Shown piece by piece: positions 1,690-41,360 of a stretch of 41,360 nucleotides of DNA; the stretch's first letter is position 1, and every line of letters begins with the position of its first letter. The DNA is from a virus (taxonomy: Duplodnaviria > Heunggongvirae > Uroviricota > Caudoviricetes): IMG/VR virus record IMGVR_UViG_2778261164_000004, positions 1 to 41,360 of that record; one strand, given 5' to 3'. The position numbers and the translations under genes are program-made. The notes beneath the pieces were generated by a model. It was not told where the DNA came from. It worked only from the letters and a program-made list of their open reading frames with translations, and made no database searches.

Positions 1690-1704
1690 TGGTGTCCCCT
1701 GCAG
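1690..1704 (-). other. Prophage attachment core (left junction): 15-bp copy of tRNA-Arg 3' end
   Basis: tggtgtcccctgcag is the reverse complement of CTGCAGGGGACACCA, which I recall as the 3' end of argW; sequence diverges from the tRNA immediately after; excisionase lies about 70 bp inside. Confidence 0.6.
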
Positions 1705-1777
1705 ACATCTACTTGAAGCGGCAGGGGATTGATTGGAATGGTGTTTTTTAGGTGTGAGAAATATTTTACCCGCTATT

Positions 1778-1978
1778 TTACCCATTGGCGCGGCTTAAGA
1801 GCTTATTTTTGAATTCACAATGGTCACGATATAACCATCTTGCTCGCCCGTGGATAACTTTGGCTTTTGGCAGGTCGCCGGACTTAATCCGGTCGTAGAT
1901 GAAGGTTTTACCAAAGCCAGTATCAGCCATGATGAATTTCAAATCAACCAGGGAATCAGGCTGTAGTTCGTGTTGCAT
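1778..1978 (-). CDS. torI: Excisionase / recombination directionality factor, TorI-type (66 aa)
   Basis: 66-aa ORF MQHELQPDSLVDLKFIMADTGFGKTFIYDRIKSGDLPKAKVIHGRARWLYRDH... matches recalled TorI of the KplE1/CPS-53 prophage; GGAG RBS upstream; sits next to the att core at the opposite prophage end from the integrase. Confidence 0.85.
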   Translation of the reverse strand: MQHELQPDSLVDLKFIMADTGFGKTFIYDRIKSGDLPKAKVIHGRARWLYRDHCEFKNKLLSRANG

Positions 1979-2020
1979 GAGTGCTATCTCCGAATAGGGA
2001 ATCGAACCTGCAAATCAGGC

Positions 2021-2044
2021 AAGAAAAAGCCGCATTGATGCGGC
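2021..2044 (-). terminator. Rho-independent terminator upstream of torI (minus strand)
   Basis: Minus-strand RNA GCCGCA-UCAA-UGCGGC followed by UUUUUCUU (plus-strand A-run 2023-2028). Confidence 0.45.
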
Positions 2045-2101
2045 GATGGTAGGTCTGGATATCATTGAGCAATGAACAGGCCTCATCGAGTGTGAGGCGG
2101 G

Positions 2102-2446
2102 TTAGTCCTTGCGTAGCTCGCTGATTCTTCTGTAAGTCTCTGGTGCTTTGTTTCCGTGTATCTTCATTTCAGACTTCAACAGAGCAACGAGAGAATCCCA
2201 TTCGTTGAGGATGCCTTTGAATGCCGGAACGCGCTTTGCAACCTTGTCGAATGAATCTCTGATTTCTGGAATCTGCTCAACAAGTGCAACGCATCGCCGG
2301 AAGTCTGCTGCGTCATGGGGAGCGCCGAAGTGATGACCATAGATATTCTTTTTCAGTCCACATGCGATTGAGGCAAGAGTTGCGCTACTGATGCCGACAT
2401 CGCCAGTTGATTGCCATTTCAAAACCTTCATAGCCAAATCTGACAT
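2102..2446 (-). CDS. Hypothetical early-left protein (114 aa)
   Basis: ORF with GGAGA RBS 6 nt upstream of ATG at 2446; no family recognised. Confidence 0.55.
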   Translation of the reverse strand: MSDLAMKVLKWQSTGDVGISSATLASIACGLKKNIYGHHFGAPHDAADFRRCVALVEQIPEIRDSFDKVAKRVPAFKGILNEWDSLVALLKSEMKIHGNKAPETYRRISELRKD

Positions 2447-2518
2447 TTCTTGTCTCCATAAAACAAAACTCGCCGTAGCGAGCTCAGATAAAAGAAATCC
2501 CCGTCAGTGCGAGGATTG

Positions 2519-2803
2519 TTATTCATTGCTGATATTCACCTTTATCGCGAACACCTTTACCGGTTTATCACCGAAGTGCGGATGTGTGATTGTCTTGATC
2601 TCATATCCGTCATACGGAACATCAATTCTGCGGCTGGAATCGTCGCGCTTCGGATATCCCTTTGTGATAATCAGGCGGTCATATTCCCGGAACATAATTC
2701 GCTTATTCCAGTAGTCATTACACAGGCGATACTCTTCCGTTTTCTCCCCGCGAATCATGGCATCGAAGTATTCACCTTTAACGGCAAGTTGCAGGTTAGC
2801 CAC
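2519..2803 (-). CDS. Small ASCH/DUF3850-like protein (about 94 aa from GTG start)
   Basis: AGGAGG RBS precedes GTG at 2803, which sits just after the stop of the upstream gene; motif LAVKGEYFDAMIRGEKTEEYR resembles ASCH-like domains (recalled, unverified). Confidence 0.5.
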   Translation of the reverse strand: MANLQLAVKGEYFDAMIRGEKTEEYRLCNDYWNKRIMFREYDRLIITKGYPKRDDSSRRIDVPYDGYEIKTITHPHFGDKPVKVFAIKVNISNE

Positions 2804-3323
2804 GGTTAACCTCCTGCTGCGGTGCTGCTGGCATTTCACTCCAGTGCGTAACTGAGTGCGGATCCGGATATTCGGTGCCATCATCCCAGCGATTGCCATT
2901 CCACATTGCAGACCACATCTCACCGTCTTCATACATGACAATTACCGGAATTAACTTATCCGGCATTCGATCACTACAGCTTATCCAACCATCCGTAGTT
3001 ACCGGAGAGTTGCCATTTACATCGAAGTTTGGCTCTGCGTCCTGAACCAGGAGGATGTAACCATTCTTGGCAGTATCAAGTTCTAACGCCTCGGTGACGG
3101 TGCCGAAATAGCGATTACCTAAATCCGCATCACAAGTGCTTACATCAATGGAAACCTCCATCCCTTCGATTAATTCTGGCAAGTTGTAAGTTTGGCTTAC
3201 AGGCTCGGCTTCCAGCGATGCCAGTGCAATCCGTGCCAGTTCCATTTGTTCGCCACGAGTAAGTCCGTTATCAAGCGGATTTTTAATGAATAATTCGATA
3301 CGTTCTTTAGTGATAGTGCTCAT
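2796..3323 (-). CDS. Phage protein with DUF551-like C-terminal region (175 aa)
   Basis: AAGGAG RBS before ATG at 3323 (internal to the longer track ORF); Trp/Pro-rich C-terminus typical of DUF551 phage proteins (recalled). Confidence 0.5.
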   Translation of the reverse strand: MSTITKERIELFIKNPLDNGLTRGEQMELARIALASLEAEPVSQTYNLPELIEGMEVSIDVSTCDADLGNRYFGTVTEALELDTAKNGYILLVQDAEPNFDVNGNSPVTTDGWISCSDRMPDKLIPVIVMYEDGEMWSAMWNGNRWDDGTEYPDPHSVTHWSEMPAAPQQEVNRG

Positions 3324-3324
3324 A

Positions 3325-3876
3325 TCACTCTCCTTTGATGCGAATGCCTGTTGCAATGCTGTTTATGATGCTGTCAGTGCATGGGGTAGAAAGCTGGGCA
3401 TCTCCAGCAATTTTCATGACCTCAACATCTGCATATCGAATACCGAGGTGTATCAGACCAGCTATGCCTGACTTAAGCCGAGCATTTTCCATAAATAGAA
3501 CTTTTGCCCGCCGTTTTTCTGCCTCAAGCTCAACGCGCAGCTTCCCTACCGTTAGCGCAATATCCTCGTTCTCCTGGTCGCGGCGTTTGATGTATTGCTG
3601 GTTTCTTTCCCGTTCATCCAGAAGCGCCAGCACAGTAGCCGGATTGGCTGCGGCGATGAATTCAGCATTGGCCTGCTGTTCTATTTGGAAATCTTCATCG
3701 AAACCGCTTTCTGGATGCGCTCCTTCAATTCTGCAAATGGGAATATATCCAGCAACTTCACGATGAATTAGCGCATCATCACCATCAAATCGGCCCTCTC
3801 CATATTCGAGCGACCACTCGCCACACGTTGCTTTTTCTGCCTTAGCACGCAGTGCCTGATAGTCAATCTTGCTCAC
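3325..3876 (-). CDS. Hypothetical coiled-coil early protein (183 aa from GTG start)
   Basis: AAGGGAG RBS precedes GTG at 3876; C-terminal half charged and heptad-like. Confidence 0.45.
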   Translation of the reverse strand: MSKIDYQALRAKAEKATCGEWSLEYGEGRFDGDDALIHREVAGYIPICRIEGAHPESGFDEDFQIEQQANAEFIAAANPATVLALLDERERNQQYIKRRDQENEDIALTVGKLRVELEAEKRRAKVLFMENARLKSGIAGLIHLGIRYADVEVMKIAGDAQLSTPCTDSIINSIATGIRIKGE

Positions 3877-4168
3877 TGGTTGTCTCCCTTGCTGGGCTTT
3901 CGAATGTATCAAACTCAAACAACTTAACCACGTCATCAAACAGGACATAATCGCCATCAGGATCTTCAGTCATGTCAGCGCCACAATCCTGACCGAACGA
4001 GTCACAACCATCCATATCAAGCTCGTATCGCTTCAGGTTTGCGATATTTGATAAATTCAGCGCCAGTACAGCCAGGTCATAAACCTCTTCGGCGGTATAC
4101 CCTGCGCCATGCCCATACATTTCAATGCGGGATATGATTTCTTCTACCCGTTGTTTTGTGATCGTCAT
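3863..4168 (-). CDS. Hypothetical acidic early protein (101 aa)
   Basis: GGGAGG RBS upstream; ATG overlaps the stop of the upstream gene (ATGA). Confidence 0.5.
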   Translation of the reverse strand: MTITKQRVEEIISRIEMYGHGAGYTAEEVYDLAVLALNLSNIANLKRYELDMDGCDSFGQDCGADMTEDPDGDYVLFDDVVKLFEFDTFESPARETTSEQD

Positions 4169-4671
4169 TTTTGCTCACCTCCCTGTTCTTCCAGAAAAAT
4201 ACGCATAGCCTCAAGCATCTCTTCGGTGTCATACGGAGACAGCTTGTCACGCAGGATGTGTTCAATGCTGTTAATGAACTTTCGGATTGCTTTGCGTTCA
4301 ATTTCAGTCAGGAAAGCATCGGTGGCTGACATATTTCCTGTTGCCTTCATGGCCTTCAAAATAACCAGAACGCCATCTTGCCCAACCAACTCGGAGATAA
4401 TCTCAGTGTTGTCGCCAACAACATCACAGAATGCCTGAACAGCTTTACGAGCAAGTGCATTCTCCGCCGCCAGCGCCGCGCACTTGGCCTCAAGGTTATC
4501 AATCGTGATTCCAGCAGAACGACACTCCCGCAACGCCGTTTCCAGTTTTGATTCAAGTTCACCGAACTTACGGACAAGATATTCAGCGTTTGTTTCGTTA
4601 ACCTTTAAATCACTTGGGATGCATTTACCTTTCAGAAAACCATCCATCTCAATTAGTGACATTTGTTTCAT
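4165..4671 (-). CDS. Hypothetical early protein (168 aa)
   Basis: ORF whose ATG overlaps the stop of the upstream small gene (ATGA coupling). Confidence 0.5.
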
Positions 4672-4832
4672 TTCTTCCCACTCCGCAACATCGCATTCAG
4701 ATATTTGTTTTGATTCACTGATGGAAAAGAATTTCTCTTAAGCAATTCCTCTCTCGATGGCATTGGCTTTACGCGTTGGCGAATAATCATTTCTGCCGGA
4801 AGAATGCCGGGATTGTATGCAAGCCCTCTCAT
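4668..4832 (-). CDS. Small hypothetical protein (54 aa), below the ORF-track size cutoff
   Basis: GGAG RBS 8 nt upstream of ATG at 4832; ATGA overlaps with both flanking genes; translation [54 protein letters not shown]. Confidence 0.4.
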
Positions 4833-5119
4833 GATTTACTCTCCACGAACTGGTCAATAGCCATGCTAAGTGACACACCTAAAGTCTCGATATGTTGCTG
4901 AATATCCTGTAGCGTCTGCGCCTGAGATAACAGGATTTCACGGTTGCATAACTCTTTAACCAGATGCTCAAACTTGCTGTAATAACCGATACGGCTTAGT
5001 GTTTCTTTCCCTGCATTCTCGCCTTCTTTGATAATTCCTCTTTCGCTAAGAATCAGATCGTGTTTTGTTCCGGTAATAACGTATTTTCCGAGGTCGATGT
5101 TTAGCTTCATTGTTTTCAT
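4829..5119 (-). CDS. Hypothetical early protein (96 aa from internal ATG)
   Basis: GAGGA RBS 7 nt upstream of ATG at 5119; the longer upstream extension has no RBS. Confidence 0.45.
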
Positions 5120-5129
5120 TGTTAATTCC

Positions 5130-5426
5130 TCAGTCATTACTGATAGCGCCATAGCGTGAGCGGTAATTACGCAGGCGCAGGTCGATATATTCAGGGAAGT
5201 GGGTATATGTGGCTTTGCGGAATGGTCGGATTGATGTCTGGTAAATTCGCTCGCGTTCTTCTTTCTCTGCAAGCCATATACAGTGGCGAAATTCCTTTTC
5301 CTCTTTCGTTTCCTGCGGTAGAGACATTATCCGGTCGTAGTTTTTTCTGAATTTATCCAGCACCTCCGATACGGAATTGCCGGAACATCGGCGTGGGTCA
5401 TCCTCACCATACAGAGGCGCTGGCAT
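5130..5426 (-). CDS. Hypothetical early protein (98 aa)
   Basis: AAGGA RBS upstream of ATG at 5426. Confidence 0.5.
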   Translation of the reverse strand: MPAPLYGEDDPRRCSGNSVSEVLDKFRKNYDRIMSLPQETKEEKEFRHCIWLAEKEERERIYQTSIRPFRKATYTHFPEYIDLRLRNYRSRYGAISND

Positions 5427-5449: not shown

Positions 5450-5833
5450 TCAGAATGGGATGGAATCGTCGTATACAGGAGTGTTCTGCTGGTTACTACT
5501 TTGCTGCTGCGGGCCATTTCCTGAAGCTGTAAATCCAATCTTTGCATTCAGTAATTCAAGAGTAATTGATTGACCATTTTGCCCCTGATAAACATCAACC
5601 CTGATGTTTTCTCCGGTAATTTCCACAATGCCACCTTCAACAAGAACGCTACGGTAGTAATCCGCTTGCGCTCCTGGCTTGGCAAATACAACGGCGCTGT
5701 AGTTTGTCCATTCTTTCTTTTTTGTCTGGCGATCGTAATACTGAACGCCAGCACGGATGTTGAATCCGATATTTTCCCCGGCCTGAAACTCTCTTGCGGG
5801 TTTGTTTAGTCTTACAGTAATCGAGTGTGCCAT
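5450..5833 (-). CDS. SSB-like single-stranded DNA-binding protein (127 aa)
   Basis: C-terminus ...PVYDDSIPF resembles the acidic DDDIPF tail of bacterial SSB; Gly/Gln-rich linker; ATG at 5833 overlaps the Erf stop (TAATG); located in the recombination module. Confidence 0.55.
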   Translation of the reverse strand: MAHSITVRLNKPAREFQAGENIGFNIRAGVQYYDRQTKKKEWTNYSAVVFAKPGAQADYYRSVLVEGGIVEITGENIRVDVYQGQNGQSITLELLNAKIGFTASGNGPQQQSSNQQNTPVYDDSIPF

Positions 5834-6438
5834 TAAGCAGCCGCTCCTTCTAATTCGTCTCGTCTTATGTTGTAAACGTCCTGCGCTTTGTGCTGCTCCG
5901 GTGTGCCTTCGAGCATCTTCCACGCTTTGGCGAACGCCTGTTTAAGCTCTTCCACGGTGTTTTTCTGCATTGCTGCGTCAGTGAATGCTTTTAGAACCTG
6001 TTCAGGTGTAAGTGATGGTTTTGATTGCTTTGCTGCTGCGTTCTGCTGATGTTTATGCTCGTCTGTATCTGCATCTTTCGCATCATCAATGCCGAACAAA
6101 CCATTGAGGCAATACTTGCGTGCATAAGAGCTTGTAGCTCCAGTAACTTGTGCAGAATCCATTCCTTTCTTGCTTTCTTCCTCTCGTGCAAGAGCGGTTG
6201 CCGTATGACTGTTTTCGCCATCGGTAATAGTTGCCGTGGCTTTCACATAATACCGATCACCAATCAACACAACTTCATCGCTGATTGATAAAAACAGGCC
6301 ATTCAGTAGCGGCTTAACGCCTTCAAGAATATCTTCGCAGCTTCTGTATTTATATTTACCGAATGAGTTGTATTGATTCTTTGGCGCGTTCAGATTCTCC
6401 TGAATAGCTGCCAGCCTTGCGTAAAATTCTTTGCTCAT
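5833..6438 (-). CDS. erf: Erf-family single-strand annealing recombinase
   Basis: MSKEFYARLAAIQENLNAPKNQYNSFGKYKYRSCEDILEGVKPLL... closely resembles recalled P22 Erf; start chosen at the MSKEFY methionine. Confidence 0.8.
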   Translation of the reverse strand: MSKEFYARLAAIQENLNAPKNQYNSFGKYKYRSCEDILEGVKPLLNGLFLSISDEVVLIGDRYYVKATATITDGENSHTATALAREEESKKGMDSAQVTGATSSYARKYCLNGLFGIDDAKDADTDEHKHQQNAAAKQSKPSLTPEQVLKAFTDAAMQKNTVEELKQAFAKAWKMLEGTPEQHKAQDVYNIRRDELEGAAA

Positions 6439-6448: not shown

Positions 6449-6619
6449 TCAGAATGGACATGGCCCAAGGAAATAACGCTGATTTAATACTTCTACTCGT
6501 GACAAGTTAAGGCATACCCGCATTCCTTCGCGGTCGCCATTATGGCGATACCAGAGAGCTTTCTGCGTGTACATGCGTCTCTGTAACTTGCTCTCCTTCA
6601 CTGTGGTTGCAAGTGACAT
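6449..6619 (-). CDS. Small ORF upstream of erf (56 aa), Arf-position candidate
   Basis: AAGGAG RBS 6 nt upstream of ATG at 6619; stop TGA 10 nt before erf ATG; overlaps an alternative 52-aa ORF (6540-6698) in another frame, so the call is ambiguous. Confidence 0.3.
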   Translation of the reverse strand: MSLATTVKESKLQRRMYTQKALWYRHNGDREGMRVCLNLSRVEVLNQRYFLGPCPF

Positions 6620-6694
6620 GAATATCTCCTTCGTTACCGATTAATTCTTTCATCTGACGAATGAATTCTTCGTCTGACCAGTTATCTGTAAAAC

Positions 6695-6847
6695 TCATTT
6701 CCTGCGATACCACGGAATGTTGATCGCTGATTTCATCGCTTTATTTGCTTCAAGCCACATTTTGGAATCACCAATAAATCTGGCTATTACTGCTTTGTTT
6801 TGTGCTGCACGAAGCATCTGGTGATTGATGGCTATTTCATTGCGCAT
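6695..6847 (-). CDS. Kil-like small protein (50 aa), candidate cell-division inhibitor
   Basis: GGAGG RBS before ATG at 6847; segment IARFIGDSKMWLEA resembles my recollection of lambda Kil (IATFIGDEKMFREA); below track cutoff. Confidence 0.4.
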   Translation of the reverse strand: MRNEIAINHQMLRAAQNKAVIARFIGDSKMWLEANKAMKSAINIPWYRRK

Positions 6848-6966
6848 AACGCCTCCAGTTGTTTCTTTGCTGCTCTGATTAATTGTTTAACTCGGCGTGA
6901 TAATTCAGATTCGTGCGGGTAGAAAGCGGACATGACGCCGCTACCCGCGAGCTGAAAGTGCATCAT
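6832..6966 (-). CDS. Small hypothetical protein (44 aa)
   Basis: Strong AAGGAG RBS before ATGATG at 6966; internal start of a longer track ORF that lacks an RBS. Confidence 0.4.
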   Translation of the reverse strand: MMHFQLAGSGVMSAFYPHESELSRRVKQLIRAAKKQLEALCAMK

Positions 6967-7734: not shown

Positions 7735-8007
7735 TTACCTCGCCGTCAGTTGTTTTGATTTCCGGTAGCCTGCCGCGTAAATGGCTACGTTTGGCAGGCA
7801 AATACTTCCACTGCATTCATCTGCCTTCTTGCAGCGAAGGCTTCCGAGTGATGCTGCTTTATCTGCTCTGACGCAACCAGAGAGCTTTAGCGCAATCTTT
7901 CGCGCCAATCGCTGTTCTTGCATTGCCTGTTCACGTTGAGCCTGTCTGCGTGCTCTGCGGCGATTTCTGGCGTTATCGTCAGCCAGATATGTAATGACTA
8001 CTGTCAT
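7735..8007 (-). CDS. N-like transcription antiterminator candidate (90 aa) with arginine-rich motif
   Basis: First gene downstream of PL and nutL; contains NARNRRRARRQAQREQA, resembling the arginine-rich RNA-binding motif of lambdoid N proteins; GGAGG RBS 5 nt upstream of ATG. Confidence 0.5.
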   Translation of the reverse strand: MTVVITYLADDNARNRRRARRQAQREQAMQEQRLARKIALKLSGCVRADKAASLGSLRCKKADECSGSICLPNVAIYAAGYRKSKQLTAR

Positions 8008-8365
8008 GTTGACCTCCGATGATTGACTTTGGCGGTGACGCGCCGGGTGCTTATCTTCCGGTTGCCGTCGTGCAGCTGCACTTCACGTCACCCCAAAGCC
8101 AACTACTCTTTGACTCACACTCTCGCAGTGAGCGCGCTCATGCCCTTGAGTCTCTGTCGCTTATTAGCCGCTGATAACCGGTGCGCGTCTGGCATTCGCG
8201 CTGCCTTTCCGGAGCATGTTCCCTTATTTACCCTCACATCGGTCTGCTAAACCTGCTCGCCATTACGCGACTCGGGGCAGCATCATTACTGCTGCATTGC
8301 CTTTCGGCTGCGGTCTAACCGCGTTAGTGCACCATTACGGCACCTCCTGTTTGGTTAAACTCAGT

Positions 8366-8406
8366 TCCCGCATTTCGGCGGGACAATCCCATCAATGTTA
8401 AAGAGC
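8366..8406 (-). promoter_or_regulatory. nutL site (boxA GCUCUUUAACA + boxB hairpin)
   Basis: Minus-strand boxA at 8396-8406 and hairpin UCCCGC-CGAAAU-GCGGGA at 8366-8383; the same boxB sequence recurs on the plus strand after cro (nutR). Confidence 0.6.
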
Positions 8407-8452
8407 CTGCCAATCTGTTCCGTTTGGCTACCAGCGTCCTGCTGATGGCTAA

Positions 8453-8495
8453 AGAATACTGTAGGTATTTTATTGTGTAAATACCCAAGGTATTT
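8453..8495 (-). promoter_or_regulatory. OL operators and PL promoter
   Basis: Two palindromic operators AATAC-N5-GTATT (8455-8469) and AAATAC-N5-GTATTT (8479-8495) of the same family as the OR sites; minus-strand -35 TTTACA and -10 TATTCT with 17-bp spacer overlap them. Confidence 0.55.
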
Positions 8496-8625
8496 ATTTT
8501 TGGTGAAATAATGATAAGCAAATGAATACAAAGGATATTTATTTTTTCGTCGTCTGCTTGTTCAGTGCTTTTTATGCGGGATATGTGAAGTTGATCCCGA
8601 TAGCTATTGCTGCCGGGATTATGGG

Positions 8626-8993
8626 TTAGTCAGCGAAGGTTAAGACGAGAATTACCTTAATGATGTCTGCTACAACAGACACGGCCATAGATAAACCAAA
8701 GACGATCCAAGCCATAGAGATGTCTTCACTACCATCGTATAGAGTTCCGTAATCACTGGTGTAAGGCGTAAATGTCGCGCCTTGATACAATAGGTATAAG
8801 CTTGATCCATAGAGGATAAATGCAGATATCCCTTGTATTGCTATGATCACCAGAATCATGAAACGAGCTGATCTATGCGCCCAAGCCTGGCTTATTTTTT
8901 CTGATAGAGATTTCGCAAAAAAGCATGCGCTAAGCCGTAAATTGTTGAGATTGCCAACATCCCCAAAAAGCTTGCTATAGCGGTTCCAACCAT
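8626..8993 (-). CDS. Repressor-linked three-TM membrane protein; reading frame interrupted at a homopolymer tract (frameshift, pseudogene or slippage site)
   Basis: AAGGGGG RBS and ATG at 8993 open a hydrophobic 33-codon frame (MVGTAIASFLGMLAISTIYGLAHAF...) ending at TAA 8892-8894; the two-TM C-terminal part continues in another frame to 8626; frames rejoin if a coding-strand T6 run (plus 8917-8922) were T7. Confidence 0.45.
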
Positions 8994-9011
8994 AAGCGCC
9001 CCCTTGCGTGA

Positions 9012-9728
9012 TCAAACCAGTCTGAGTTTTGTCTCAATTGCAACGCCTATAATCTTGCAGTTTCCATTGATTGGCACGAGAGGCCATGCAGGATTAAGTC
9101 CCTTGAGGTATTTATTTCCGCCGTCGATTATCAGCTTCTTGAATGTTGCTTCGTTAGAGTCAGAAAGTTTTGCTATGACCAAGCTGCCGTTGATCGCCTC
9201 CCTTCCGGTATCGAAAAGAACGAATGTTCCCTCTGGAATGCTTAACCCAACCGGTGCCGTCATTGAATCACCTTCCACTTTAAGCCAGAACGCATTACCT
9301 TGAATATGCGCGTCAGACTCAAGCCAAACATCTATGTCTTTAATGGTGTATGGTTCGCATGCTTCACACCACGAGCCAGCCTGGATACTGCTTAACACCG
9401 GATACCTCTTTCCTGCTCTGTATTCTCCTGCATACCTTACGTTGGCATCGCTCTTAAGGCTTTCTGCCTGTTCTGCAACCTTGGCAGCAATTGACTGGCT
9501 AAAATCAGCAATTGAGACTTGCAACAGTCGTGCAAAACCAGATGCAACCTCAACGTTTAGCGCGTTTCTGCCATTAAGATAATGCCCTACCGCTCCTTGG
9601 GTGATACCCAGTTCATCAGCGATTGAGTATTGGGTTATTCCCAATTCTTTCTTTTTTGACTCATACAAAGCCTTAAGCCGCTTAGCGTCTTCTAGCTGTT
9701 CTGTCGTCAGTGATTTTTTATTTTCCAT
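9012..9728 (-). CDS. cI: Lambda CI-like prophage repressor (HTH + S24 LexA-like autopeptidase domain)
   Basis: N-terminus ...LTTEQLEDAKRLKALYESKKKELGITQ closely parallels lambda CI; C-terminal domain has the GDSM serine and AKL lysine motifs of S24 peptidases; divergent from cro. Confidence 0.9.
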   Translation of the reverse strand: MENKKSLTTEQLEDAKRLKALYESKKKELGITQYSIADELGITQGAVGHYLNGRNALNVEVASGFARLLQVSIADFSQSIAAKVAEQAESLKSDANVRYAGEYRAGKRYPVLSSIQAGSWCEACEPYTIKDIDVWLESDAHIQGNAFWLKVEGDSMTAPVGLSIPEGTFVLFDTGREAINGSLVIAKLSDSNEATFKKLIIDGGNKYLKGLNPAWPLVPINGNCKIIGVAIETKLRLV

Positions 9729-9763
9729 AGCTTAATTCTAATAGCTAAGGTACTTAAACTAAA

Positions 9764-9805
9764 AATACCCTGAGTATTGATTGCTTTGAATACCTGTAGT
9801 ATTCT
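9764..9805. promoter_or_regulatory. OR operators with PR promoter
   Basis: Palindromes AATAC-CCTGA-GTATT (9764-9778) and GAATAC-CTGTA-GTATTC (9788-9804); PR -35 TTGATT (9777-9782), 17-bp spacer, -10 TATTCT (9800-9805) overlapping the second operator. Confidence 0.6.
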
Positions 9806-9834
9806 TTGTTCATGGTTAATAACGGAGAGTGCAT

Positions 9835-10029
9835 ATGATTCGAATGACACTTGCCGATTACGCCAAAATCCATGGACAGGCTAAAGCAGCCAGTGACTTT
9901 GGTGTAATCCAGTGCGCTATCAGCAAGGCCATTCTGGCAGGCCGTAACATCATGGTTACGGTAAAGCCTGATGGCAGTGTGATTGGAGAGGAAGTTCGTC
10001 CTTTCCCAAGCAACAAGAAAAACAAATAG
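9835..10029 (+). CDS. cro: Cro repressor (lambda Cro-like, 64 aa)
   Basis: [62 protein letters not shown] aligns along its length with recalled lambda Cro; GGAG RBS; ATG at 9835 preferred over the upstream GTG. Confidence 0.85.
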
Positions 10030-10036
10030 TAACACC

Positions 10037-10079
10037 GCTCTTTAACAGTCATGGTCCTCATTCCCGCCGAAATGCGGGA
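10037..10079 (+). promoter_or_regulatory. nutR site (boxA CGCTCTTTAACA + boxB hairpin)
   Basis: boxA at 10037-10048; hairpin TCCCGC-CGAAAT-GCGGGA at 10062-10079, identical to the nutL boxB. Confidence 0.65.
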
Positions 10080-10137
10080 ATACAACGCGCATAATTTGAT
10101 GCGCATAACTTCTTATTTGTTAAGGAAATACTTACAT

Positions 10138-10416
10138 ATGCAACTTACAAGTACTCGCAAGAAAGCGAATGCAATTACAAGCAACATCCTGAATCGAATT
10201 GCTGTACGTGGTCAGCGAAAGGTTGCCGACGCGTTAGGGATTAATGAATCGCAAATTTCGCGATGGAAAGATAGCTTCATCCCCAAAATGGGAATGCTTC
10301 TGGCTGTTCTTGAATGGGGTGTTGAAGACGAGGAGTTGGCGGAACTGGCTAAGAAAGTAGCCAGAATGCTGACAAAAGAAAAAGCCCCGAAGAACGGCGA
10401 ATTCTTCGAGGCCTGA
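10138..10416 (+). CDS. cII: CII-like transcriptional activator (92 aa)
   Basis: ...SQISRWKDSFIPKMGMLLAVLEWGVEDEELAELAKKVA... parallels lambda CII (SQISRWKRDWIPKFSMLLAVLEWGV); internal ATG chosen because the longer ORF would overlap nutR. Confidence 0.8.
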   Translation: MQLTSTRKKANAITSNILNRIAVRGQRKVADALGINESQISRWKDSFIPKMGMLLAVLEWGVEDEELAELAKKVARMLTKEKAPKNGEFFEA

Positions 10417-10450: not shown

Positions 10451-10612
10451 ATGACAAAACGTCGTAAGAAATACCAGGAAAAAGAAGAGATTCGACACCC
10501 TGATTCACCTGAGGGATTAGTGGTAGCCGCAGCAAATAACAGGGCGTTCGCAGAGCGCCTTGTTGGTGTTTACAGACTAGCCAAAGCAGGAGTGAAACAT
10601 GGGCGTCGTTAA
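10451..10612 (+). CDS. Small basic hypothetical protein (53 aa)
   Basis: AGGAG RBS 5 nt upstream of ATG at 10451; overlaps the start of the O-like gene by 14 nt; below track cutoff. Confidence 0.35.
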   Translation: MTKRRKKYQEKEEIRHPDSPEGLVVAAANNRAFAERLVGVYRLAKAGVKHGRR

Positions 10613-11489
10613 GTTAGCTGATTACAGGCATAACCCTGTACAACATCAGGAGGCATCCAGTATGGGGTATGTCTCTATACACCGCCAGTTTATGGACAGC
10701 AGGCTCTATAAGGACTCTCAGGCAGTACATCTTTGGCTTCACTTAATCCTCAAGGCTAATCACGAATCTACTGTCGTCAATACGGATATCGGTCCGATAA
10801 CTGTTGATCGCGGTCAGATGATAACTGGACGCCCGTCGCTGGTCAGAGAAACATTCATCCCCGACAACAAAGTTCGGAGCTTATTACGGACTTTTGAGTC
10901 GAAAGGGATGCTTAATATTTGCTCGATGGGGAAGAAATTTAGCCTGTTTACAATCGTTAAATATGACGATTTTCAGGCAAAAAATTGTCCAACGGTTGTC
11001 CAACGGTTGTCCAACGCAAACACCAGTAATGGCGCGGCTCTCAGCGGAGATTGTCCAACGGTTGTCCAACGGTTGTCCATAAACAATAATATAAATAATA
11101 TCTCTAATACTGACGTATTAGAGAGTGCCACAGCAGACAAAAAGTCTGACAAGAAAAAACCTTCCGTTAGCTGTCAGGATGTTGTCGATGCTTACCACGA
11201 AATCCTTCCTGAAGCGCCAAGAATCCGCGCACTGAATGACAAGCGTAAAAACCAGATCCGAACGTTCTGGCGCAAAGCCGGAGTGATAACCCGCCAGCTT
11301 GACGGGCATGGGTTCACGATGCAGGACTGGAGAAATTATTTGAGCTACGTAGGCGAAAATTGCCGATGGATGTTCGAAGAACGCCCAAACCATCAACGCG
11401 GAACCGTCTGGCACAAAAAGGGATTTGATTTCCTGCTTAACGACAATACCTACCTGAAAGTTCGTGAGGGTGAACACGATGACCGATAA
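10599..11489 (+). CDS. Replication initiation protein (O / gp18-like) containing the origin iterons
   Basis: AGGAG RBS; immediately precedes the helicase gene; contains two clusters of 11-bp direct repeats followed by an AT-rich tract, as in lambdoid O genes. Confidence 0.7.
   Translation: MGVVKLADYRHNPVQHQEASSMGYVSIHRQFMDSRLYKDSQAVHLWLHLILKANHESTVVNTDIGPITVDRGQMITGRPSLVRETFIPDNKVRSLLRTFESKGMLNICSMGKKFSLFTIVKYDDFQAKNCPTVVQRLSNANTSNGAALSGDCPTVVQRLSINNNINNISNTDVLESATADKKSDKKKPSVSCQDVVDAYHEILPEAPRIRALNDKRKNQIRTFWRKAGVITRQLDGHGFTMQDWRNYLSYVGENCRWMFEERPNHQRGTVWHKKGFDFLLNDNTYLKVREGEHDDR
10985..11083. repeat. Origin-of-replication iterons (2 x 3 copies of TTGTCCAACGG) with adjacent AT-rich region
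   Basis: Tandem 11-bp units at 10985-11017 and 11051-11083 (third copy of each set degenerate); AT-rich stretch 11084-11125. Confidence 0.6.
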
Positions 11490-12990: not shown

Positions 12991-13173
12991 ATGAATCTGG
13001 ACGAGCAAGATGCACAAACTATTAGCTCATACATAAGGGCATCAAGACCAGATTACAAAGGTCCGGTGTTCGTAGATTTATCTCGCCTTGAAGAGATTTA
13101 CATGTGGGAAGCAAGGCTACTTACGCATCTTTTTATTCGCAAGATGACTAGCAACATTACAAAACCAATGTAA
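12991..13173 (+). CDS. Hypothetical nin-region protein (60 aa)
   Basis: ORF with GGGGAGAG RBS upstream. Confidence 0.4.
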   Translation: MNLDEQDAQTISSYIRASRPDYKGPVFVDLSRLEEIYMWEARLLTHLFIRKMTSNITKPM

Positions 13174-13187
13174 CTGGAGAGGTGAAT

Positions 13188-13403: not shown

Positions 13404-13404
13404 T

Positions 13405-13671: not shown

Positions 13672-13673
13672 CG

Positions 13674-25783: not shown

Positions 25784-25787
25784 TAAC

Positions 25788-35903: not shown

Positions 35904-38060
35904 ATGACAGACATTACAGCCAATGTTGTGGTAAGCATGCCTTCGCAACTCTTCACTATGGCGCGTTCTTTTAAAGCCGTAGCTAATGGTAAAATTTATA
36001 TCGGAATAATTGACACTGACCCGGTAAATCCAGAAAACCAGATTCAGGTTTATATAGAGAACGAAGACGGTTCTCACGTTCCTGTTTCGCAACCAATCAT
36101 CATTAATGCTGCTGGATATCCGGTATATAACGGACAGATTGCCAAGTTTGTAACTGTGCAAGGTCATTCTATGTCTGTGTACGATGCATATGGATCACAG
36201 CAGTTCTATTTCCCTAATGTGCTGAAGTACGACCCTGATCAATTTGAGATTAGGCTTTCTAATCAAGACGGCGCTGGTCTTGTTGGGATTATGCCATATG
36301 GCACGGTACAGGATGCCATCAAATGGGTTGTCCCCGAGGTATTCCCCGGAAGTAATGCGTCAGAAAAATTACAGGCAGCTGTAAATTATGCGGTTGCAAA
36401 CAAAACGAGAGTTGTAGCATCAGGTGTGTACGATGTAACAGCCCCCGTCACCATCCCAGGAGACATCATTATCGATGCTTCTACTGGAGAATTTACCTTC
36501 AATGGCATTGATTATATTTTCCATCCGCTTGGCGCAAAATCAGTAGAGATTATCGGCGGTAAGTTCACCGCAAATGCATACCACACCCAGCGTCCTCAGG
36601 TAATTTTCAATGATTACCCTGATGGGCTGGAGAATTTACCAACGCGCGTGGTGATAAAAGATATGCAATGCTTTAACTGCGGTGTTGGCTACATCATGGT
36701 TAACTGTCAGGACCCAACCAGCGTACATATCTCAGTTGATAATAACTACTGCAAGACTGATGACAACACAGATCAGTATATCTCTGATGCAGGAATGTCA
36801 GGTGAACAGGGTGAGGTATATCCATATCTGATGATTCTTGGCAACACGACTGCATCCGTCGACATTGGAACTCCTCGCAAGTCAATGTTCCACATAACGA
36901 ATAACACCTTTGATGTTTTTATGCAGACCGGTCCGAATGCAGATATTATAAAAATCGGAGGATCGACGATAGGAGGCGCTTTCTCTGGAAATTTACTTAT
37001 GAACAGGAATGCTGAGTCTGCGTGTGAGATGGATACATTTACTGGGGGGCTTGAAATAAACATAACTTCCAACAGATTTGTCAATACAGCTAATAAAATG
37101 ATGTCATTGCAATTTGATGGCAGTACTAGAGTCGGTCTTGGTGGGCGTTCAGTTATTTCTAACAATATCTATCATTTTGAGGAAAACCCGCTTAACGATT
37201 TCGCTATATTCCTTAGAACTTCTCTTGTTAGTATTACAGGAAATGTTTTCTACTATAAAGGTGCTACAAATCCTTCAGAACAGAGGATATTTAATTTCAT
37301 CGCTTCACAGGCGTTAAACAACAATAACAACGGTTTTAATGGCACGTGGTGTGCCGGAATTAGTATCAACAGCAATACCATGCAAATGGTTCTTGATCCT
37401 GGTGTTAACAAAGACCTAAGACTCCAATGCATCAACACTACCGATATGTCAGGAGCAGTTATATCTGGCAACTTCATGGCCGGGGGTGTTGGAATGGTGC
37501 TTAATGCAAGACCAGAAAGAAACAGAAACGTATGGACAGGTAACTTCATTACGTCAGGGTTATTTACGGCAGAAGATATCTGGCGAATGAACTCAGCTTT
37601 TGTAGGTTCAGGTAACTATATCGGAAATGGTTATGATAATACTGTTAATGGCGTAGCAATGTTAAGCAAGTCTTTACCTGTGTTATCTGATGGCTCAAAG
37701 GTACGAATTACTCTTGATAAACAGATATTGACTGGTTCTACATCTGATCGCACTCTTTACCTTCTCCACATAAAAGTGACTGGAGGTGTAAAAAATAATT
37801 ATGCTACTTATATCATGTCTTCCGGTGCGCATGACGCAACGGACAGGGCAGATGCAACTGACCTTAAATCACCCATTGATCAGCGGTTAAATCCAGGAGA
37901 CACATCCATAGCAAACCTGCAAAGTTGCTTCAAAGCAGGGTACAACGGGAGTGGGTATATTGTGCTTGAGGCTCTTTCAACATACAGCGCTGCAAATAAT
38001 CCGCCAACAAAACTTGAATATGCAATAGTACCATTATCAACAAACTTCCCAACTCTGTAA
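35904..38060 (+). CDS. Tailspike protein (P22 gp9-type head-binding domain + divergent beta-helix receptor-binding domain)
   Basis: First about 120 aa (MTDITANVVVSMPSQLFTMARSFKAVANGKIYIGIIDTDPVNPENQIQVYIENEDGSHV...) match the P22 tailspike N-terminal domain; remaining about 600 aa are unlike P22 and have beta-helix-like repeats. Confidence 0.85.
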   Translation: MTDITANVVVSMPSQLFTMARSFKAVANGKIYIGIIDTDPVNPENQIQVYIENEDGSHVPVSQPIIINAAGYPVYNGQIAKFVTVQGHSMSVYDAYGSQQFYFPNVLKYDPDQFEIRLSNQDGAGLVGIMPYGTVQDAIKWVVPEVFPGSNASEKLQAAVNYAVANKTRVVASGVYDVTAPVTIPGDIIIDASTGEFTFNGIDYIFHPLGAKSVEIIGGKFTANAYHTQRPQVIFNDYPDGLENLPTRVVIKDMQCFNCGVGYIMVNCQDPTSVHISVDNNYCKTDDNTDQYISDAGMSGEQGEVYPYLMILGNTTASVDIGTPRKSMFHITNNTFDVFMQTGPNADIIKIGGSTIGGAFSGNLLMNRNAESACEMDTFTGGLEINITSNRFVNTANKMMSLQFDGSTRVGLGGRSVISNNIYHFEENPLNDFAIFLRTSLVSITGNVFYYKGATNPSEQRIFNFIASQALNNNNNGFNGTWCAGISINSNTMQMVLDPGVNKDLRLQCINTTDMSGAVISGNFMAGGVGMVLNARPERNRNVWTGNFITSGLFTAEDIWRMNSAFVGSGNYIGNGYDNTVNGVAMLSKSLPVLSDGSKVRITLDKQILTGSTSDRTLYLLHIKVTGGVKNNYATYIMSSGAHDATDRADATDLKSPIDQRLNPGDTSIANLQSCFKAGYNGSGYIVLEALSTYSAANNPPTKLEYAIVPLSTNFPTL

Positions 38061-38062
38061 AT

Positions 38063-38099
38063 TTGTGCGCACTATGAAAAAGTTAAATAGTGCGCACAA
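38063..38099. terminator. 13-bp perfect inverted repeat between convergent tailspike and acyltransferase genes (bidirectional terminator candidate)
   Basis: TTGTGCGCACTAT (38063-38075) and ATAGTGCGCACAA (38087-38099), 11-nt loop, AT-rich flanks. Confidence 0.55.
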
Positions 38100-38108
38100 T
38101 TATTTATA

Positions 38109-40064
38109 TTATATATCGATAATTATATTTCCAAACCCTTCAATTGCCTTTCTTGCTCCATATCTTGATAGATGATACTCATCAGAATACATAACGTCAC
38201 CTTTGTCAGATACTAGGTTACATCTCCCATTCCTACACATGAAATCATAAGGGTTTATAAACTTTATACTTCCGTTATCTGATAGCCATTTGTTTAAATA
38301 ATTATTGCTATCTAACCTATCACCGCTTTCTGTGCTGAAAATACTATCAATGCATTTCTTTTCAACATATGAAGGTCGGCTCACACAAGAAAGACCGCCG
38401 TCAGAGCCTATTGCTGCCGGGTGGTTTCCAATAACAATTACTTTCTGATTTGTGTACTCTTGAATATTGTTAATAACGGAAGCATTGAATTTCATATAAT
38501 CATGGTCTCCGTTGAATTTATACACATTACCATCTTTATCAGATAGCATCTCCATGTACCTAAGCCATGATTGTGCATAAACAAGTGGTATCTTATTATA
38601 TTTAGAGTAATCTATCGCTTTTGTTCCTATCTTCACACCATATACAGAAACCTTCCCTTTTTCTGTAACGTAAACGCTATTTGATAGATATGCCCCATCA
38701 GCGAAGAATGCTGCTGCTGATAGATTTCTCTTTGCAAGAAATTCACTCATGGCTAATGAATACTGTCTTGCATAACTGTCACCCATGAAAACAAATGATG
38801 GCTTTTTGGTTTTATCTCCAAGAACTACCATTTCACCTTGCTTAACCCCAAAGCCTCCGAATAAATATTCTTTAAATCCAGGTTTGAGCATTTCCATGTT
38901 TTCTTTATAATTTTGTATTCTAAATGCAAATCCGTTGTCTTTTATTGAAGATGAATACGAAATCATAACCAATATAGTTAATGATAAAAGCAATACTGAT
39001 TTGTAGCAAAACTCATTTATTTTTATCTTTCTGAATTTATTTTCTATTGCGTTGTACATTAAGAATCCAACAGCCAGCGAAGATAAAATCAATGATGCTT
39101 TCTCGATATCATTTAACTCTCTATATATCCAGTATTTGTAAAACACAATAATAGGCCAGTGAATTAGATAAACTGAATACGATATCAGGCCTATCGTAAC
39201 GCTGACCCTGTTATTCACAGCGAAGCCAGCGTATTTTGCATCATGTGAAAGAATGCAAAGCATGGCACCCAATACGGGAATCATGGCATGCAAACCAGGG
39301 AACTGAGTTGATGATGAGTAAAGCAACGCAGATGATACTATCATCGCAAGTCCCGCAGCCATCATAGACTCCTTCATTAGTTCAGATGGTTTTATCCATC
39401 GAGAAATGAAGAATGCGAGTCCGCCGAAAGACAACTCAAAAACCCTGAACGGCATCCAGTAGTATGCTTCAGTTTGCATGTTTATAGTTGCCCACTGAGA
39501 GGATGCCAGAGAAGCAATACTAATAATAACCAGAACCCATGGCACAAGGCTCTTTTTTACTAAATATACTGCTCCGATAATCAGAGGCCATACAAGATAG
39601 AACTGCTGTTCTACACCAAGAGACCATGTGTGCAACAATGGATTTATTTCTGATGATGTATCGAAATAACCAACGCTTTGTGCAAAAAATATATTTGATG
39701 CTGAATACAACGCATATATTGCTGATTTAGATACACTAACAAAATCAGAAGGTGAGTACAGAATAAAGCACCCAGCAAAAACGGCGATCAGCGTTGCTAT
39801 AAGAGCAGGGTACAGTCTTGCTATCCTGGCGAACATGAAATTAATGTAACTGAAAGTTCCATTCTCAGTTTGATTGAAAATTATTCCAGTTATCAGATAA
39901 CCAGAAATAACAAAAAATACATCAACGCCAACAAACCCTCCGGGAACACTGCTGAACCCTACATGAAATATAAGAACTAAAATGACGGCAACAGCACGGA
40001 GTCCATCAACTCCTGGCTGGTAATTTTTAGACAATGTTTTGTCAGTCTTCAAAAGAAAGCTCAT
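38109..40064 (-). CDS. O-antigen acyltransferase, acyltransferase-3 membrane domain fused to SGNH domain (OafA/Oac-like, 651 aa)
   Basis: N-terminal AT3 motifs (DGLRAVAVILVLIFHV, FFVISGYLIT), about 10 TM segments, C-terminal GDS(Y) SGNH motif; markedly AT-rich compared with neighbours; sits between tailspike and integrase. Confidence 0.8.
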   Translation of the reverse strand: MSFLLKTDKTLSKNYQPGVDGLRAVAVILVLIFHVGFSSVPGGFVGVDVFFVISGYLITGIIFNQTENGTFSYINFMFARIARLYPALIATLIAVFAGCFILYSPSDFVSVSKSAIYALYSASNIFFAQSVGYFDTSSEINPLLHTWSLGVEQQFYLVWPLIIGAVYLVKKSLVPWVLVIISIASLASSQWATINMQTEAYYWMPFRVFELSFGGLAFFISRWIKPSELMKESMMAAGLAMIVSSALLYSSSTQFPGLHAMIPVLGAMLCILSHDAKYAGFAVNNRVSVTIGLISYSVYLIHWPIIVFYKYWIYRELNDIEKASLILSSLAVGFLMYNAIENKFRKIKINEFCYKSVLLLSLTILVMISYSSSIKDNGFAFRIQNYKENMEMLKPGFKEYLFGGFGVKQGEMVVLGDKTKKPSFVFMGDSYARQYSLAMSEFLAKRNLSAAAFFADGAYLSNSVYVTEKGKVSVYGVKIGTKAIDYSKYNKIPLVYAQSWLRYMEMLSDKDGNVYKFNGDHDYMKFNASVINNIQEYTNQKVIVIGNHPAAIGSDGGLSCVSRPSYVEKKCIDSIFSTESGDRLDSNNYLNKWLSDNGSIKFINPYDFMCRNGRCNLVSDKGDVMYSDEYHLSRYGARKAIEGFGNIIIDI

Positions 40065-40202
40065 TATTCATCCGTATTCATTCTTTTTTGCTGTGCTGAT
40101 ATTAGCACTGACATCGCCACCGATCGACTTTTGAAGTGGTAACTAGGCGAAAACGGGATACACAAAGCTTTGCATTGGTTTGCAAGGCTTTGTGCTGTTT
40201 TT

Positions 40203-41360
40203 CTACGACACCCTCTCATCGAGATAATCCGCCCACCACTGCATCATCTCCCTGCGCTTATCGAGATACTGAGCATGGTTGTAAATCCCACGCACAGATC
40301 CGCCGTTGGCATGTGCCAGTTGCACTTCAATAGCGTCAGCAGGCCATTCGTGCTCGTTCATAATCGTGCTGAATTCATGCCTGAATCCGTGACCGCTTTC
40401 CAGACCCTCATAGCCAATTTGTTTGATCACAAGCAATACCGCGTTCTCGCAGATTGGCTTCTTCTTATCGTTGCGACCGGCAAAAACAAACTCTGATACT
40501 GGTTTGGTGATTGAGCTTAGTGTAGTGAGAAGTTCAACCACCTGGTCTGACATCGGGACAACATGAATTTTGCGTCCCTTCATCACACTGGCGTCGATGG
40601 TGATAATCCTGTTTTCAAAATCGACGTTCTTCCATAGCATGGAACGAAGCTCTTTCGTTCTTAGGGCTGTGTAGCGTAAAACTTTGGTCGCAATGAGCGA
40701 TACGATACTTCCTGAAAATGTTGCCAGTGCTTTGTTGAATGCCGGGATCTGGTCTGCTGGAAGAAACGGGAAGTTCTTCTTGCGGTATCCTTTCATGGCG
40801 TCTGCAAGGTCAGGTGCCGGGTTATATTTAGCCCTTCCGGTGACAATAGCGTAACGGAAAACCTCGCCGCATCTTCTGCGGGCTTTGTTGGCTCGCTCCA
40901 TTGCACCGCGATCTTCAAATCTGCGGATTACTTCCAGCAGTTGCATCGGCTCAATATCCTGAATCTCAAGACCGCCGATGATGGGTAAAATGTCGTCATC
41001 AAACATTTTGGCAAGTTCAGTTGCATAGCCTACTGACCAGACTTGCTTCTTGTGCTCGTACCATTCCTTGTAAATCGCACTAAATGAATTGTTGTTAGAC
41101 GAAGCCTTTTTCGCCTTTACCGGATCGATGCCAACCGAGATGTCTTTCCTCGCGGTCCATGCTTTATCCCTTGCTTCCTGCAAAGTCATAAGCGGATATT
41201 TTCCGACGGTCAGGATTTTCTCCTTACCGTCAATCTTGTAGCGAAGCTGCCATACCTTTTTCCCGGATACAGGGACATAAAGGTACAGGCCATTACCATC
41301 GAGAAGGCGGTATGGTTTTTCTTTCGGCTTAGCTGCTTCAATCTGCTTAACGGTGAGCAT
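40203..41360 (-). CDS. intS: Tyrosine integrase, IntS type (385 aa), start codon at window end
   Basis: MLTVKQIEAAKPKEKPYRLLDGNGLYLYVPVSGKKVWQLRYKIDGKEK... and C-terminal catalytic motifs (HGFRH, Y near the C-terminus) match recalled E. coli IntS of CPS-53/KplE1. Confidence 0.9.
   Translation of the reverse strand: MLTVKQIEAAKPKEKPYRLLDGNGLYLYVPVSGKKVWQLRYKIDGKEKILTVGKYPLMTLQEARDKAWTARKDISVGIDPVKAKKASSNNNSFSAIYKEWYEHKKQVWSVGYATELAKMFDDDILPIIGGLEIQDIEPMQLLEVIRRFEDRGAMERANKARRRCGEVFRYAIVTGRAKYNPAPDLADAMKGYRKKNFPFLPADQIPAFNKALATFSGSIVSLIATKVLRYTALRTKELRSMLWKNVDFENRIITIDASVMKGRKIHVVPMSDQVVELLTTLSSITKPVSEFVFAGRNDKKKPICENAVLLVIKQIGYEGLESGHGFRHEFSTIMNEHEWPADAIEVQLAHANGGSVRGIYNHAQYLDKRREMMQWWADYLDERVS

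Follow-up and report, generated by a model that had tools for sequence, protein, structure and literature searches.

A very probably complete P22-like prophage in argW next to a sucrose permease gene, with a candidate structured RNA upstream of its N gene

The stretch of DNA analysed here (IMG/VR record IMGVR_UViG_2778261164_000004, 41,360 nucleotides (nt), henceforth the window) starts at the start codon of the sucrose permease gene cscB and ends at the start codon of intS, a 385-amino-acid (aa) integrase gene. What lies between the two, from position 1690 to 41360 and for about 176 bp past the window end, is very probably a complete temperate P22-like prophage (Lederbergvirus) of the HK620/Sf6 subgroup that is integrated in the tRNA gene argW. 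The only unusual item of this otherwise ordinary prophage is a 251-nt structured RNA element in the leader of its N gene.

Boundaries and integration site

The features that define the two ends of the element are the following.

1-1248, plus strand: cscB, sucrose permease, chromosomal flank outside the prophage; 99.8% aa identity to the annotated cscB of E. coli 1296KP (L001)
1328-1480, minus strand: remnant of a DUF4942 gene, chromosomal flank between cscB and the attachment (att) core; mapped from the 1296KP annotation
1690-1704, plus strand: att core at the torI end, identical to the terminal 15 nt of argW; equals pawZ of K-12 and is attR in the KplE1 naming of Panis et al.
1705-1777, no strand: phage arm of the att site, from the core to torI; 96% nt identity to the HK620 attP region 1369-1723
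1778-1978, minus strand: torI, excisionase or recombination directionality factor (RDF); 100% aa identity to K-12 TorI, HK620 HkaC and Sf6 gp18
1998-2013, plus strand: second argW-derived 16-mer, positions 15-30 of the reverse complement of the tRNA; overlaps the region of the cII-activated pI promoter annotated in HK620
40203-41360, minus strand: intS, tyrosine integrase with arm-binding, central and catalytic domains; 99.5% aa identity to K-12 IntS

The sequence at 1690-1704, TGGTGTCCCCTGCAG, is an exact reverse-complement copy of the terminal 15 nt of argW, which encodes tRNA-Arg(CCU). It occurs once in the window, against a chance expectation of 0.06 matches with up to two mismatches, and is separated from torI by 73 bp. 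Since the similarity to K-12 CPS-53, HK620 and Sf6 sets in exactly at 1690, we take this position as the end of the prophage. In K-12 these 15 bp are annotated as the pseudo-tRNA pawZ. A duplicated core of 16 nt, CTGCAGGGGACACCAT, was described by Panis et al. (PMC2951348); the core is 15 nt long here because base 16 differs, the flank being csc-side DNA.

A run of ARAGORN over the whole window found no tRNA gene. As the window is thus without a tRNA gene and ends at the intS start, the argW-side junction was taken from an identical public contig, SRR5187825_54 (L005), which was retrieved by looking up the 651-aa acyltransferase of the element in public assemblies. This contig is 100.000% identical to window 28109-41360 (13,252 bp, zero mismatches), and beyond intS it continues into an intact argW (tRNA-Arg(CCT)), followed by yfdC and mlaA. 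The end of argW expected at the intS-argW junction is CTGCAGGGGACACCA, 161 bp from the intS ATG, and the second core of the contig, the 3' 15 nt of argW, lies at just this distance. The 3' core of argW is therefore present as a direct repeat at both ends and argW is intact, with the second core and the tRNA gene read from the contig, outside the window. From core to core we infer a length of about 39.8 kb, which is within the size range of HK620 (38.3 kb), Sf6 (39.0 kb) and P22 (41.7 kb).

A related prophage sits in the same setting in E. coli 1296KP, where the order is cscA-cscK-cscB, DUF4942 remnant, torI ... intS, tRNA-Arg, yfdC, mlaA; window 1-2044 is 97.6% identical to this genome at the nt level. 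The DUF4942 remnant, for which RefSeq gives a length of 50 aa in a related strain, points to past traffic of mobile elements at the cscB/att junction. The csc/argW hotspot as such is already documented (PMC11251922, PMC8787464).

With torI and intS at its opposite ends, the element has the layout that is annotated in HK620 and Sf6, where the order is exactly the same: int, then an attP core of 16 nt, then a TorI homologue. The recombination module of KplE1 is conserved in CUS-3, HK620 and Sf6, where the transcription of int and that of the RDF gene are uncoupled, and it has been shuffled among unrelated phage backbones (PMC2951348). A preliminary description of this DNA, made from the letters and their open reading frames (ORFs), had reported the 15-bp tRNA 3'-end copy beside torI and the IntS-type integrase and TorI-type excisionase at opposite ends, had expected an intact tRNA-Arg gene and a second core past 41360, and had seen in the csc-adjacent position a fit with a hypervariable region at argW. 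All of these points agree with the sequences and publications considered here.

The second 16-mer, GGAATCGAACCTGCAA at 1998-2013, matches, in the same orientation, the 16 nt that directly precede the core on its 5' side in argW. It lies directly upstream of torI, as it also does in K-12. The final 30 nt of argW are thus all present, but they are split by torI and the att arm, with a gap of 293 bp. The split copy suggests an ancestral attP with a longer match to the tRNA. At the other end, a 51-aa ORF between the acyltransferase gene and intS (40064-40219, minus strand) has no family match. Because about 43 bp downstream of the intS stop are still conserved with K-12, this stretch is probably non-coding and represents the promoter region of the acyltransferase gene or the terminator region of intS.

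Virion genes and completeness

To describe the gene content, 73 candidate ORFs were compared by tblastn with HK620, Sf6, P22 and the 1296KP prophage, and additionally with PHROGs and Pfam. The virion genes upstream of the tailspike are these.

19639-21473, plus strand: small (19639-20064) and large (20061-21473) terminase genes, Sf6 type; 90% and 100% aa identity to Sf6, full length
21476-25783, plus strand: portal, scaffold (23616-24500) and coat (24512-25783), Sf6/HK620 type; 99-100% aa identity, full length
25986-28743, plus strand: gp4, gp10 and the gp26 tail needle with an Sf6-type knob; 98-100% aa identity to Sf6
28743-33137, plus strand: gp14 and the ejection proteins gp7, gp20 and gp16; full profile coverage of phrog_651 (gp14), 67-97% aa identity to relatives, Pfam families of the identical genes in contig L005

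The module is collinear (terS-terL-portal-scaffold-coat-gp4-gp10-gp26-gp14-gp7-gp20-gp16) and is followed by a tailspike with a P22 head-binding domain; all of its genes are full length. Identities of 97-100% aa to a functional phage, again over the full length, were found for N, cI, cro, cII, the O-type initiator, the DnaB-type helicase, Q, S, R and Rz in the early and lysis regions, and for terL, portal, scaffold, coat, gp4, gp10 and gp26 in the virion module. The small terminase subunit is as close to HK620 as to Sf6 (90% aa), and Rz1 reaches 94% aa. Four genes are full length but more diverged: gp14, which covers the full phrog_651 profile, gp7, with 67-72% aa identity, and gp20 and gp16, with 88% and 97% aa identity to the 1296KP prophage. 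To P22, on the other hand, portal and scaffold have only about 32% aa identity, and the coat protein has no P22 match.

Neither insertion sequence (IS) elements nor frameshifts, nor any unexplained or large gaps, were found within the element. The preliminary description had credited it with a full set of replication, lysis and virion genes and had allowed for inactivating lesions in essential genes on finer inspection; measured against functional HK620, Sf6 and P22 the set is full length throughout, and at the ORF level we see no such lesion. As far as the sequence goes, the view that the element is intact holds.

Early region, immunity, replication and lysis

The lambdoid early region is complete, with N, cI, cro, cII, replication genes, nin region, Q and lysis cassette. 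Its features, from left to right, are listed below.

2102-5426, minus strand: early-left accessory genes (ea-type, DUF551, Ead/Ea22-like, DUF2737, and the anti-RecBCD gene abc2 at 5130-5426); PHROGs, and tblastn to HK620, Sf6 and P22
5450-5833, minus strand: SSB-like protein, phrog_44; ATG at 5833 with an AAGGAG Shine-Dalgarno sequence
5833-6438, minus strand: Erf recombinase, phrog_155; 74% aa identity to P22 Erf, full length
6449-6966, minus strand: small early-left genes including kil (6695-6847) and cIII (6832-6966); 98-100% aa identity to Sf6 gp29-31
7735-8007, minus strand: N antiterminator, phrog_271; 98% aa identity to HK620 N
8366-8517, minus strand: nutL, pL and OL1-3; coordinates from the HK620 annotation, 98% nt identity to HK620 7751-9847
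8626-8994, minus strand: hkaS-like gene, phrog_6534; 79% aa identity to HK620 HkaS
9012-9728, minus strand: cI repressor, 99.6% aa identity to HK620 cI; Pfam PF01381 (helix-turn-helix) and PF00717 (S24 LexA-type autopeptidase, complete)
9835-10416, plus strand: cro (9835-10029), nutR and cII (10138-10416); coordinates transferred from HK620
10599-12915, plus strand: O-type initiator (10599-11489; 99.7% aa identity to Sf6 gp43) and DnaB-type helicase (11479-12915; 99% to HK620 P), both full length
12991-15802, plus strand: nin region with NinB, NinE, NinX, NinF, DUF1364, RusA, NinH and small ORFs
15799-16422, plus strand: Q late antiterminator, PF03589; 99% aa identity to HK620 Q, 97% to P22 gp23
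17099-18316, plus strand: lysis cassette of S holin, R endolysin and Rz, with Rz1 embedded at 18078-18263; 94-100% aa identity to Sf6, HK620 and P22
18530-19060, plus strand: KilA-N domain accessory protein, PF04383, phrog_129

The region of cI and its operators is 98% identical to HK620 at the nt level, and both the N and the C domain of DnaB are present in the helicase. An apparent truncation of Erf, or an overlap of Erf with the SSB-like gene, is an artefact of choosing the start of the longest ORF: read from the ATG at 6438, the protein matches P22 Erf over its entire length, and an ATG that overlaps the Erf stop is the start of the SSB-like gene.

The hkaS-like gene codes for 122 aa and had no match in Pfam, NCBIfam or PADLOC. 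It is probably expressed in the lysogen, because it lies directly downstream of cI in the same orientation, which is a rexAB-type position.

immI, tailspike and probable conversion cargo

Between gp16 and intS the element carries a second immunity region, the tailspike gene and a presumed conversion gene.

33151-33636, minus strand: predicted lipoprotein of 161 aa (LLAGC lipobox) in the position of P22 sieA, phrog_6067
33671-35803: P22-type immI, with hkcC (plus), orf59a 34050-34229 (minus), mnt 34329-34580 (minus), arc 34671-34832 (plus), sar RNA 34833-34900 (minus) and ant 34901-35803 (plus)
35904-38060, plus strand: tailspike with a P22-type head-binding domain (PF09008, residues 1-113, E = 5.9e-66) and a different receptor-binding domain
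38109-40064, minus strand: acyltransferase of 651 aa with an AT3 (PF01757, residues 18-334) and an SGNH domain (PF19040, residues 413-640); 34-39% GC

The immI region is complete, with divergent mnt and arc-ant operons and sar; its gene limits agree with the gene calls of the identical contig L005. Its proteins are 87-99% identical to those of P22. Mnt, Arc and Ant, at 87-97%, are recognised by the Pfam families Mnt, Arc and P22_AR, while the sar RNA scores 92 bits with Rfam RF00262, for which the gathering threshold is 43. The whole stretch from gp16 to the tailspike is 92% identical to P22 immI at the nt level.

In the PDB, the 718-aa tailspike is matched at its N-terminus only, and the receptor-binding part is without a solved relative. 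The siphovirus vB_EcoS_swi2 has a tail fibre with 89% identity to residues 114-718.

The acyltransferase gene lies between tailspike and integrase. Because this is the slot of oac in Sf6 and of gtrABC in P22, the gene is most likely a lysogenic-conversion gene whose product would acylate the O-antigen (seroconversion). An N-terminal AT3 membrane domain fused to a C-terminal SGNH domain is the architecture of phage-borne O-antigen acyltransferases (OafA/OafB), of which it is a putative member. It had no match in the PDB and no equivalog match in NCBIfam, where the sole match was SucT, with 129 bits against a cut-off of 1275. More generally, PADLOC models and searches of NCBIfam and the PDB gave no informative assignment for the lipoprotein, the hkaS-like gene, the KilA-N gene, the other accessory genes or the acyltransferase. 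The lipoprotein, which has no similarity to P22 SieA and no match in Pfam, NCBIfam or PADLOC, is possibly a superinfection-exclusion gene.

Tailspike and low-GC acyltransferase (window 35904-40064) travel as a pair (L006-L012). The identical acyltransferase accompanies an equally long tailspike (718 aa, in one case 719) in P22-like prophages at other chromosomal sites, which are adjacent to bioA, adjacent to the paa genes or close to a gene for a PBP5-family (Peptidase_S11) D-alanyl-D-alanine carboxypeptidase. In L011 (GCA_020732235.1, 8469-21741) we see a decayed derivative at argW: the end with argW, intS, this acyltransferase and this tailspike, together with a truncated gp16, is joined to early-left genes and torI, with a second core copy at 20038 adjoining cscB. 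It is a KplE1-like remnant in the making.

A structured RNA element in the N leader

One further feature of the early region is treated separately.

8113-8363, minus strand: structured RNA element of 251 nt with a Shine-Dalgarno sequence and a start-stop minigene at its 5' end; a precise insertion relative to HK620 and the 1296KP prophage

In the direction of pL, the element lies directly downstream of the boxB hairpin of nutL and upstream of N. Its homologues (L014-L140) were found in 15 phage records (E. coli, Klebsiella, Hafnia and Providencia), in none of which they are annotated, in at least 118 IMG/VR contigs and in 113 of 5,426 E. coli genomes. Of 40 E. coli records listed, 36 have no annotated feature where the match lies. 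A pattern scan of contigs, in which chance matches in GC-rich genomes dominate, gave five real matches out of 120 (two in Kluyvera, one each in Silvania and Enterobacter, and contig L229). Always co-oriented with the operon, the copies occupy three kinds of position: between nutL and N, after a terminator-like hairpin that follows Q-type genes, and about 20 nt after Rz/Rz1.

For a test of the structure, 72 copies with a mutual identity below 97% were aligned (alignment A2). The alignment contains nine hairpins, which are 96.4% paired. Compensatory double changes occur in 18 of 38 pairs, compared with 6.5 +/- 1.6 in shuffled alignments, none of 500 of which reached the observed number, and with 5-11 in slid controls. 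Read on the minus strand of the window, the non-Watson-Crick cells comprise 179 G-U and 50 A-C; since G-U far exceeds A-C on this strand, the RNA runs with pL transcription. Folding z-scores of the single sequence were not significant on either strand.

All copies have the minigene at their 5' end: a strong Shine-Dalgarno sequence, a spacer of 5-8 nt, ATG or TTG, zero to two sense codons and a stop. Examples of the peptides are M, MK, LK, MKQ, MVH and MHG, and the copy in the window reads AUG GUG CAC UAA. A protein-coding nature of the element was rejected, the only conserved ORF being one to three codons long. Terminal inverted repeats or a target-site duplication indicative of a miniature inverted-repeat transposable element were not found at the element. 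Rfam 15 gave no gathering-level match, and at E <= 10 only noise of at most 17 bits; in the literature, including a 2025 review of phage small RNAs, we found no RNA of this size and position.

The element is thus a new candidate RNA motif of antiterminated phage operons. Going further, we tentatively suggest an undescribed class of mobile structured RNA that is placed at the start of antiterminated transcripts of enterobacterial phages and consists of the minigene and at least nine conserved hairpins, although the odds are somewhat against so broad a claim. Judging from sequence and position, the RNA could act as a ribosome-engaging cis-regulatory or stabilising leader, or it could be a processed regulatory or anti-defence RNA. 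If it is functional, it would be a new portable RNA module tied to N/Q-antiterminated transcription in many phages of Enterobacterales, and one that is testable in a genetically tractable lambdoid background.

Mosaic composition

In a megablast comparison with 5,426 complete E. coli genomes and 50,697 phage records, the pieces of the mosaic matched many E. coli prophages, as well as the phages HK620, Sf6, N7 and mEpX2, at 96-98% identity. The P22-like parts are gp10, gp16, Q, NinE/F/X, Erf and immI, whereas the procapsid is of the Sf6/HK620 type and the immunity of the HK620 type. A mosaic of lambdoid early region, Sf6/P22-type structural genes and P22 immI had been put forward in the preliminary description, and all three parts are indeed present.

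The same description had also called the element an intact relative of the defective K-12 prophage KplE1 (CPS-53). What remains of this is the shared argW recombination module, outside which only a 105-bp patch is similar; the real relatives are HK620 and Sf6. A close relationship with KplE1 was ruled out accordingly.

Interpretation

A complete, P22-like prophage of this type is plausibly inducible, and its life cycle can be sketched from the genes. Integration would proceed by IntS-mediated recombination between the core of attP and the 15 nt identical to it at the end of argW; since attP sits between intS and torI, this puts intS beside argW and torI at the far, csc end. Lysogeny would be kept by the HK620-type cI with its LexA-like autocleavage domain, with the P22-type immI circuit (Mnt, Arc, sar RNA and the Ant antirepressor) as a putative backup immunity. 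Upon SOS induction, transcription from pL and pR and antitermination by N and then Q would lead to the expression of TorI, for excision together with IntS, of the O and DnaB-type replication proteins and of S/R/Rz/Rz1. The expected late output is an Sf6-type virion with headful packaging. Its tailspike would bind through a receptor-binding domain that is neither of the HK620 nor of the Sf6 type, and the adjacent acyltransferase most likely modifies the O-antigen receptor.

Several points speak against this interpretation. Excision, replication and the production of particles are inferred from intact ORFs, and a comparison of ORF lengths is blind to inactivating point mutations in a protein, an operator or the pac site. 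The argW-side junction lies outside the window and is deduced from the 100%-identical contig. In the megablast comparison no record covers 80% or more of either half of the element in one place, so that this exact mosaic has no viable precedent among them. Furthermore, Erf, the SSB-like gene, gp14, gp7 and the receptor-binding domain of the tailspike are diverged alleles without a tested counterpart in HK620, Sf6 or P22.

Alternatively, the prophage could be structurally complete but functionally cryptic, owing to subtle missense, operator, pac or promoter lesions or to modules that are incompatible with each other. The exact mosaic occurs in no viable phage or complete genome searched, the argW locus gathers decayed derivatives such as K-12 CPS-53 and L011, and the 251-nt insertion in the N leader could in principle disturb the expression of N. 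However, the isolated phage mEp213 has the same 251-nt element before the same N gene, the cI/operator region is nearly that of HK620, and the essential ORFs are all full length, most of them at 97-100% aa identity to functional phages, with no IS element, frameshift or large gap among them. On balance we consider a cryptic prophage unlikely.

That the element is an intact KplE1, the direct ancestor type of the K-12 CPS-53 remnant, is highly improbable: site and core are the same, IntS and TorI are nearly identical or identical, and conversion cargo lies beside intS in both (gtr-type yfdGHI in K-12, the acyltransferase here), but the nt similarity is limited to intS (94.7%), the torI-att arm (94.6% over 410 bp) and a 105-bp patch (71%), the tail-fibre assembly remnants of CPS-53 (tfaS, yfdK, yfdL) are not P22-like, and the recombination module is one that is shuffled among unrelated backbones (PMC2951348).

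Comparison with known phages

The arrangement that we describe is already known. HK620, Sf6, CUS-3 and Kapi1 are published P22-like phages of argW with the same int/attP/xis layout, and the prophage in the window, very probably complete, is a further mosaic in a group that has been sampled heavily. In practice it is useful for annotation, as an intact phage of the argW/csc hotspot that is probably seroconverting and whose tailspike-acyltransferase pair is also found at other integration sites.

One of the closest known phages is HK620 (NC_002730; Lederbergvirus HK620). It shares with the window the int-attP-torI module and the argW core, cI, cro, N and Q (98-99.6% aa), and the P helicase, lysis genes, terminase, portal, scaffold, coat, gp4 and gp10 (98-100% aa); about 58% of the left half and about 42% of the right half of the window align with it at 96-97% nt identity. 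The two differ in the receptor domain of the tailspike, in the knob of the needle and in the alleles of gp14, gp7, gp20 and gp16. Where the window has a complete mnt-arc-sar-ant region, HK620 has only remnants of immI; its recombination gene is Sak4-like instead of Erf, its conversion cargo is an O-antigen polymerase-like gene instead of the AT3-SGNH acyltransferase, and it lacks the 251-nt element between nutL and N.

Sf6 (NC_005344) has the same integrase, RDF and attP, an O-type initiator at 99.7% identity, and holin, Rz and Rz1 in common with the window, and from terminase through the gp26 tail needle (window 19639-28745) the nt identity is 97%. It also carries a conversion acyltransferase gene between tailspike and int, but this Oac is an AT3-only protein of 333 aa with 28.6% aa identity over 200 residues to the acyltransferase of the window. 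Unlike the window, Sf6 has 434-type immunity, a Q of the phage-21 type plus tRNAs, no immI and an endorhamnosidase tailspike.

With P22 (NC_002371) the window shares the gene order, immI (hkcC-ant, 92% nt), NinE, NinF and NinX, and, at decreasing identity, Q (97%), gp10 (93%), gp16 (74%) and Erf (74%). P22, however, integrates in thrW, has C2 immunity and an attP beside an adjacent int-xis pair, and differs in the type of its procapsid genes (portal about 32% aa), in sieA in place of the lipoprotein gene and in gtrABC as cargo.

Kapi1 of E. coli MP1 is P22-like and integrated at the 3' end of argW, a region called hypervariable in the same paper; its int adjoins yfdC, its xis is at the far end, and it modifies the O-antigen (PMC8787464). 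About 29% of the right half of the window aligns with it at 95.6%. Its far end, however, adjoins dsdC and not csc, and its tailspike and conversion genes are different.

Finally, KplE1/CPS-53 is a 10.2-kb remnant that differs from the window in being without repressor, replication, lysis and P22-type virion genes. It nevertheless has the same argW site and the core of 15-16 nt (pawZ); its IntS and TorI are 99.5% and 100% identical to those of the window, and their genes likewise lie at opposite ends (PMC2951348).

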